Source: a virus
Taxonomy: Duplodnaviria > Caudoviricetes
DNA: 64,000 nucleotides
IMG/VR virus record: IMGVR_UViG_3300005544_000020
Span: 160,001-224,000 of that record
Reading direction: 5' to 3' (one strand)
Positions 9,979 through 10,371 of the stretch are shown one piece after another. The position numbers and the translations under genes are program-made. Each line of letters begins with the position of its first letter. The first letter of the stretch is position 1. Under the pieces are notes generated by a model. It was not told where the DNA came from. It made no database searches and worked only from the letters and a program-made list of their open reading frames with translations.

Positions 9979-10335
9979 TCATTGGACGGACTCCGCATGT
10001 TCCGGAGTCCAGAGCTGAATCTTCTTGAAGGCCTTCCGCGCTTGCCCCGAGATCGGCTCGGTCGCGAAGGCCGTCGCCTGATCGTTCAGATCGCTTTCGA
10101 TGAAGAGGTAGTTCCGGATTCCCTTTTGATCGCAGGCCGCAGCCGCCGCGCGCAACGCCTCTTCATTGGGCAATGAGAAGAGCACGAACGAGGACACGTC
10201 ATCAGGATTGCCGAAACGGATTCCAGCTTCGTGCGCAGCGTGAGCGGCTTGGATGGTCTGGTGAGTAGGAGTGAGGTCGGTTCGGATGCCGATGTAGACG
10301 TACTTCTTGGGGGCGGCGACCTACGTTTCGTTCAT
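9979..10335 (-). CDS. Pth2-family (peptidyl-tRNA hydrolase 2 fold) protein with in-frame UAG at codon 5
   Basis: ATG AAC GAA ACG TAG GTC...; KKYVYIGIRTDL...QAAHAA...FIESDLNDQATAFATEPI; no ATG/GTG/TTG between the TAG and the conserved N-terminal motifs. Confidence 0.7.
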
Positions 10336-10342
10336 GATCAAG

Positions 10343-10371
10343 AGACTACTGCATAGGCGCATCTGTGTCAA
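10343..10371 (-). promoter_or_regulatory. sigma70-type promoter giving leaderless mRNA starting at ATG 10335
   Basis: TTGACA-N17-TAGTCT, 7 nt to the ATG, no SD. Confidence 0.65.

Follow-up and report, generated by a model that had tools for sequence, protein, structure and literature searches.

In the phage genome analyzed here, translation of a Pth2-like gene is quite probably gated by the phage's own suppressor tRNA. The gene carries an in-frame amber codon at its very beginning, which, judged by sequence comparison, looks like a natural translational switch and not like a broken gene. It would constitute a natural "amber gate", in which one tRNA and one codon together form a post-transcriptional switch. 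To our knowledge, the suppressor tRNAs of standard-code phages have had no known target so far, and the family of gated genes gives such tRNAs a conserved one. The window, i.e. the whole stretch of 64,000 nucleotides that was analyzed, comprises bases 160001-224000 of a virus record of 236,090 bases, which is about 90% complete and has a G+C content of 58%.

The gene is located on the minus strand of the window. A TTGACA hexamer resembling a -35 element (10371-10366) is followed by a spacer of 17 nt, the -10-like hexamer TAGTCT (10348-10343) and seven further nucleotides (cttgatc), after which the start ATG is reached at 10335-10333. The four opening codons ATG AAC GAA ACG (M-N-E-T, 10335-10324), which are not preceded by an SD motif, run into the amber codon TAG as codon 5 (10323-10321) with a G, and hence a purine, at position +4. 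The frame then continues through a Pth2-fold body of 113 codons and ends with a TGA stop (10320-9979, TGA at 9981-9979). The initial annotation had proposed exactly this frame, M-N-E-T-UAG followed by a Pth2-like body, and it was recovered on the minus strand at 10335-9979. The promoter-like arrangement TTGACA-N17-TAGTCT, which had been claimed as well, is present at 10371-10343, and its hexamers are conserved in the close clade.

In 16 distinct loci the gated gene is preceded by a motif of the form TTGACA-N16/17-TA(G/T)(T/A)(C/A)T, and the exact TAGTCT is kept in the close clade, namely in L002, L003, L005, L007, L025, L026 and L027. A generic promoter scan did not flag TAGTCT, which scored below its threshold. 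A start 7 nt after the -10 hexamer without an SD was observed in the window and in L026; L005 exhibits the same 7-nt spacing with a borderline GGAG in the -10 flank, and L003, L007, L025 and L027 possess a longer leader carrying GGAGG. The absence of an SD together with the 7-nt spacing would fit a leaderless transcript here, and the mRNA of the gated gene is predicted to be probably leaderless. About nine other TTGACA-N16-18 sites were noticed in the genome, most of them with a TATACT -10 hexamer and nearly all on the minus strand (e.g. at window positions 25470, 35316 and 45830); they likely form a phage promoter set of the host-sigma70 type.

The first ATG, GTG or TTG 3' of the TAG is the GTG at 10197, which is reached after 41 codons. 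This startless stretch exhibited a strong coding signal under a codon model for which 66 long ORFs of the same phage genome had served as the training set, and it ranks second among the startless coding prefixes in the 236-kb genome, the first one following a TGA. Since R13, Q24 and H27, all of them encoded 5' of the GTG at 10197, are invariant in the family, we concluded that the N-terminal 41 residues are translated; judging from the sequence, the 72-residue stub starting from this GTG cannot be the functional product. The initial annotation had further stated that no canonical start lies between the UAG and the first Pth2 strand, which holds here and in 64 of 71 gated loci. Consequently, synthesis of the full-length protein should require decoding of the UAG.

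The structure predicted by AlphaFold with the family alignment (pLDDT 89.7, pTM 0.83) was compared to the PDB using Foldseek. The top 12 matches were all Pth2 structures (TM 0.69-0.75, probability 1.00), with PH1539, Bit1, MJ0051, Ta0108, AF2095 and Sulfolobus Pth2 among them, and Atu0240 came next. The Pth2 (peptidyl-tRNA hydrolase 2) fold, originally proposed from the letters of the sequence, can therefore be assigned to the modelled protein with confidence. At the profile level the relationship is remote: the window's protein gave no Pfam match at E <= 0.1, weak matches to PF01981 were obtained for 23 of 25 relatives (best E = 1.1e-5), and the family profile matched the peptidyl-tRNA hydrolase 24bt_A over its full length with E = 0.0018. 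The PHROG assignment is phrog_1866, whose function is not annotated.

With Pth2 (PF01981; PDB 1wn2, 1q7s Bit1/PTRH2, 2zv3, 3erj and 1xty) the family shares the fold, a similar size of about 115 residues, the VvR-DL (VR-DL) and Q--HA motifs and the Asp of the D-A-G segment (D77, invariant). Unlike Pth2, it exhibits the family-specific invariant acids E53, E75 and E88, and the gene is phage-borne and amber-gated. The GKGK loop, which we take to carry the catalytic Lys of Pth2 (K18 and D86 presumably being the catalytic residues of the Sulfolobus enzyme), is two residues shorter in the family and contains Gln or His instead of Lys, with Gln21 nearly invariant at the shortened loop. Thus, of the catalytic pair the Asp is kept and the Lys is absent. 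The earlier caveat that the catalytic Lys is not obvious proved justified, as no Lys is found at this site across the family. In view of the missing Lys, the product is regarded as a candidate hydrolase only.

A database search yielded 49 homologues, about half of which had been modelled as stubs of 63-72 residues starting inside the domain. DNA of 104 loci was collected from the encoding contigs, IMG/VR and metagenomes and grouped into 80 clusters at 90% identity. A scan of viral contigs with a single protein gave no confirmed match, whereas an alignment-based scan did find loci; a nucleotide search of the GenBank phage set gave no match. A scan of prokaryote genomes revealed four loci on MAG contigs, and both of those with a readable start region (L108 and L109) are TAG-gated.

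Whether the early TAG is kept, a question raised by the initial annotation, was answered in the affirmative by the homologue alignment at the family level: the nearest in-frame stop is TAG in 73 of the 80 clusters, and neither TAA nor TGA occupies the gate position in any of the 80. In the 73 gated clusters the TAG follows the start at a distance of 1-7 codons and precedes the VRxDL strand by 6-19 codons, and an SD-like motif precedes the gated start in 69 of 74 distinct gated loci. Of 76 distinct loci, 65 exhibit the arrangement ATG-(0-6 codons)-TAG in the frame of the domain, compared to 6 and 2 for the other two frames, and none of the 76 exhibits the corresponding arrangement with TAA or TGA in that frame. 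The pattern thus exceeds what chance would give and is specific with respect to both frame and stop. Purines at +4, which favour amber suppression, follow the TAG in 71 of 73 gated clusters. The codon before the TAG encodes Thr in 51 of 73; in the relatives, M-T or M-x-(D/E/H)-T precedes the TAG. Among 70 complete cases, the gene itself is terminated by TGA or TAA in 65, and no second in-frame TAG was detected in the full-length homologues examined. Both the length and the sequence of the surrounding linker are variable. The TAG remains constant nevertheless, even though eight of the nine possible single-base changes would turn it into a sense codon, which we regard as the signature of selection on the stop itself.

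The seven ungated clusters exhibit ordinary SD-ATG starts. Six of them were included in the tree, where all fall within one supported clade of 15, mixed with gated sequences, and this clade requires at least three changes of state between gated and ungated. On the basis of these sequences, loss of the gate is viable but rare, and in the sample it coincides with a missing tRNA(CUA). One ungated SD-ATG homologue, L103 (metagenome contig Ga0157369_10000247), is found 1.2 kb downstream of a UUA tRNA, i.e. an ochre suppressor.

The suppressor itself is encoded at 13483-13556 on the minus strand. It was detected by ARAGORN (Rfam tRNA 54.2 bits) and exhibits a canonical cloverleaf with the anticodon loop CU-CUA-AA, A73 and an encoded CCA. 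ARAGORN identified three tRNAs in the whole genome, namely this tRNA(CUA), which is the sole CUA tRNA, and two odd "Ala" units. Comparison of its identity with 87 other phage tRNAs gave weak and inconsistent neighbours, Arg-like at best. The tRNA is located 3.1 kb upstream of the gated gene on the same strand and is not adjacent to it, and homologous tRNAs adjoin the gated gene in relatives. The gene of the window thereby combines the two features by which we define the gated Pth2-like cassette, a TAG within the first eight codons and a same-strand tRNA(CUA) nearby.

Throughout the family the two elements are linked. Within the fetched flanks, tRNA(CUA) was found in 54 of 73 gated and in none of 7 ungated clusters (Fisher p = 2e-4); considering only clusters with adequate flanks, the numbers are 41 of 51 and 0 of 4 (p = 0.003). 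In the fetched DNA of the remaining 19 of 73 gated clusters, many of which have short flanks, no tRNA(CUA) was found. Its strand was identical to that of the gated gene in 53 of 53 cases, and in most cases its end lies 30-120 nt upstream of the TAG, or the tRNA is found 700-820 nt downstream. The earlier view that the full-length protein needs readthrough is thus supported by the conserved UAG and was refined insofar as the data point to a dedicated tRNA(CUA), linked to the gene family-wide. A tRNA-like gene of another kind, with an 8-nt anticodon loop (ARAGORN "aaac"), was observed at L012:7267-7341, 2.3 kb downstream of the gated gene on a 395-kb phage contig.

The tRNA directly adjoins the gene in L026, the nearest relative, where the block orf249-orf444-GNAT is located downstream of the cassette. 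Here the same block lies between tRNA(CUA) and the cassette (window 10378-13463, minus strand, versus L026:2782-5010). The distance of 3.1 kb therefore results from a rearrangement relative to L026, and the different order of the block indicates that promoter, gene and the tRNA mimics described below moved as one piece.

In the remaining genome TAG serves as an ordinary stop. The 244 ORFs with coding signal end with 139 TGA, 56 TAA and 49 TAG codons, and taking TAG as sense leaves the coding density practically unchanged (0.885, compared to 0.883 under code 11). Where a TAG is flanked by coding signal on either side, a start follows within 1-3 codons with a single exception, so that these TAGs separate adjacent genes. 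No other suppressor clients were found in the genome, the candidates at genome positions 51.2-51.5 kb and 52.4 kb having normal SD-led starts; as far as can be read from the genome, the gated gene is the only visible client of tRNA(CUA). The 49 TAG-ended genes show neither an enrichment of back-up stops (the next TAA or TGA follows at a median distance of 58 codons) nor an avoidance of purines at +4 (33 of 49). In view of this missing adaptation an efficient suppressor should be costly, and suppression is probably weak, brief or capped.

Based on these data the following mechanism is proposed. A sigma70-like promoter would give rise to a probably leaderless mRNA opening with ATG AAC GAA ACG UAG. 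Host RF1 would terminate at the UAG and release a tetrapeptide, while tRNA(CUA), once charged by a host synthetase, would read the UAG and allow synthesis of the 117-residue Pth2-fold protein. RF1 and the charged suppressor would thus compete at codon 5, and the protein output would follow the activity of the suppressor relative to RF1. We infer that tRNA(CUA) is expressed, charged and decoding the UAG of the gated gene. The sensing of termination efficiency by the mini-ORF, which the initial annotation had suggested, would be a conjectural addition to this mechanism.

Several other explanations of the early TAG were weighed against gating by the suppressor tRNA. The simplest one, a pseudogene or an assembly error, could invoke a lone stop at codon 5 as the simplest form of damage, yet the frame is intact, conserved and free of any other stop, and this TAG is shared by about 100 independent assemblies as well as by genomes of cultured phages. 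An assembly error is therefore very unlikely, and we consider this explanation practically untenable. A sense meaning of TAG throughout the phage (code 15) or pyrrolysine insertion, with the gene being one recoded gene among many, appears hardly any more credible. The CUA tRNA is present and labelled "Pyl" by ARAGORN, some gene callers picked TAG=Q for short homologous contigs, and L012, L057, L059 and L028 gain coding density with TAG as sense. In the present genome, however, TAG ends 49 of 244 coding ORFs, the two coding densities are nearly identical and every other TAG with two-sided coding signal is followed by a normal start. With respect to pyrrolysine, no PylS was found in the genome, and the canonical cloverleaf is unlike that of tRNA-Pyl. 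It is also highly improbable that the short ORF is a uORF ending at the TAG and that the hydrolase is produced by re-initiation or from a non-canonical start with no suppressor involved. A GTG, the Val codon of the first strand, does follow the TAG in 7 of 71 gated loci and was used by gene callers for their 106-residue models, but the other 64 loci lack a canonical start 3' of the TAG, and conservation of a non-canonical codon in its place was not observed. Moreover, re-initiation needs neither the same frame nor TAG specifically, both of which are kept, and the linkage to tRNA(CUA) would be left unexplained.

The main competing explanation accepts the gate and denies it a sensing role, the TAG being a fixed dependency, i.e. 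a ratchet, or a plain attenuator. In its ratchet version the suppressor was present first and the early TAG became fixed in a useful neighbour, so that its only effect now is to prevent loss of the tRNA or to hold the amount of protein very low. This would agree with the gated gene being the only visible client of tRNA(CUA) in the genome and with ungated homologues working from a normal start, and TAG-ended genes that are unadapted to suppression fit a weak suppressor and a low output. A neutral dependency should often revert, however, whereas 73 of 80 clusters have retained the TAG, even where the protein identity has fallen to 34%; it is always located in the first eight codons, and the +4 base is nearly always a purine. 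Furthermore, a weak SD would be a cheaper means of attenuation. On balance we regard a dependency or attenuator as unlikely, though deserving serious consideration.

Directly 3' of the gene, an array of four tRNA-like units (9971-9649, order B-A-B-A, minus strand) begins 7 nt after the TGA and is probably co-transcribed with the gated gene. It consists of unit B at 9900-9971, unit A at 9821-9898, a further unit B at 9729-9800 and a further unit A at 9649-9727, all of them CCA-ended and with a 7-bp acceptor stem. The A units were labelled "tRNA-Ala(cgc)" by ARAGORN and reach 49-55 bits with Rfam tRNA. Both A units and one of the B units are predicted to fold with a longer stem, closed by GCAA or GAAA (GNRA), in place of the anticodon loop. 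Units resembling type A, with other stems and tetraloops, are present 3' of the gene in L002, L005, L007, L025, L026, L027 and L034. A gated gene heading an array of anticodon-less tRNA mimics hints at an undescribed function directed at tRNA.

We infer that the product acts on tRNA esters, either those of the suppressor or those of the co-transcribed anticodon-less mimics. If so, the gate would couple the level of the product to suppression, and the protein could serve as a cap or as an on-demand clean-up enzyme. A feedback role for the gate is nevertheless doubtful at present; weak, brief or capped suppression, as is probable here, fits feedback by a tRNA-ester hydrolase and does not show it. 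Somewhat more doubtful still is a closed-loop controller, in which the Pth2-like protein made by readthrough hydrolyses the ester-linked cargo of the suppressor tRNA or of the mimics. If such a loop were true, suppression would limit itself, in a phage where a fifth of the genes still have TAG as their stop.

The cassette was compared to known systems, and no published description of it was found. Recoded phages in which TAG is read as Gln ("code 15") and which carry suppressor tRNAs were described by Borges et al. (bioRxiv 10.1101/2021.08.26.457843), who count suppressor tRNAs, release factors and synthetases as "code change" genes, report suppressor tRNAs in standard-code relatives as well and mention no hydrolase. 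As in the present case, the phage tRNA(CUA) of code-15 phages is proposed to allow translation of in-frame TAGs, with recoding acting as a post-transcriptional switch. In those phages, however, TAG occurs at many positions in many late and lysis genes, whereas here one gene carries one TAG within its first eight codons and TAG still serves as the stop for a fifth of the genes. The genome thus shares the tRNA(CUA) of code-15 phages and exhibits neither their many in-frame TAGs nor a loss of TAG as a stop.

Early in-frame stops are also known from prfB (release factor 2), which is autoregulated by an early in-frame UGA that its own product reads and that is escaped by a +1 frameshift. In both cases the output depends on how an early in-frame stop is decoded; the escape differs in that it would be provided here by a dedicated suppressor tRNA. 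A similar logic underlies the synthetic amber gate that combines supD tRNA with a T7 RNA polymerase gene containing amber codons, where the product is formed only when mRNA and suppressor tRNA are both present. That gate is man-made, whereas the one described here is natural and conserved and sits at the extreme N-terminus. The minigenes of lambda bar, which are prone to a peptidyl-tRNA drop-off that is cleared by Pth enzymes, resemble the opening of the gated gene as short ORFs of 2-5 codons ending in a stop; unlike them, the mini-ORF considered here runs on in frame into a conserved protein, and drop-off or toxicity of the bar kind would be conjecture in its case.

Cultured phages carry the gated gene as well. 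In Acinetobacter phage ME3 it opens with ATG ACT TAG, and a "tRNA-OTHER, anticodon CTA" is annotated about 420 nt upstream. In Cronobacter phage GAP32 it opens with ATG GCA CAA TAG, and GenBank models it as a truncated stub. The Pth2-like domain of Xanthomonas phage XacN1 (L106, ORF364) forms the C-terminal part of a 279-residue ORF, whose frame opens, four codons ahead of the annotated ATG, with ATG AAG TAG; 1.2 kb upstream of ORF364 a "glutamyl-tRNA amidotransferase" gene was noticed. In many other GenBank records no feature is annotated at the site of the gated gene. The cassette is thus spread over phages from soil, sediment and other environments as well as cultured jumbo phages, and it points to a large set of genes which are truncated or overlooked in automated annotation.

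Some further neighbours of the gene were recorded. A GNAT acetyltransferase of 118 residues (11204-11560, minus strand; PF13508, PF00583) sits between tRNA(CUA) and the gated gene; of the relatives, only L026 possesses this GNAT. Detoxification by Pth has been described for GNAT toxins acting by acetylation of aminoacyl-tRNA (PMC9241777). The pairing of GNAT with a Pth2-like gene may be meaningful or may be due to chance. In 46 of the 104 loci the Pth2-like gene is directly followed by an ORF for a conserved helical protein of 90-125 residues with the motif ITAxLNLYHELRGSEHRH, which often overlaps the end of the Pth2-like gene (e.g. L005:6197-6475, L010:4594-4920 and L013:5403-5750). This helical partner could be placed neither in a Pfam nor in a PHROG family, and the genome of the window lacks it. 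At 7826-8701 (minus strand) the window encodes a retropepsin-like aspartyl protease with DUF5678, both scoring near or just below the Pfam gathering scores, and an aspartyl protease gene of similar kind is found near the homologue P0001 on its contig. Finally, a 489-residue protein with HATPase_c_3 is encoded at 14513-15982 of the window, again on the minus strand.
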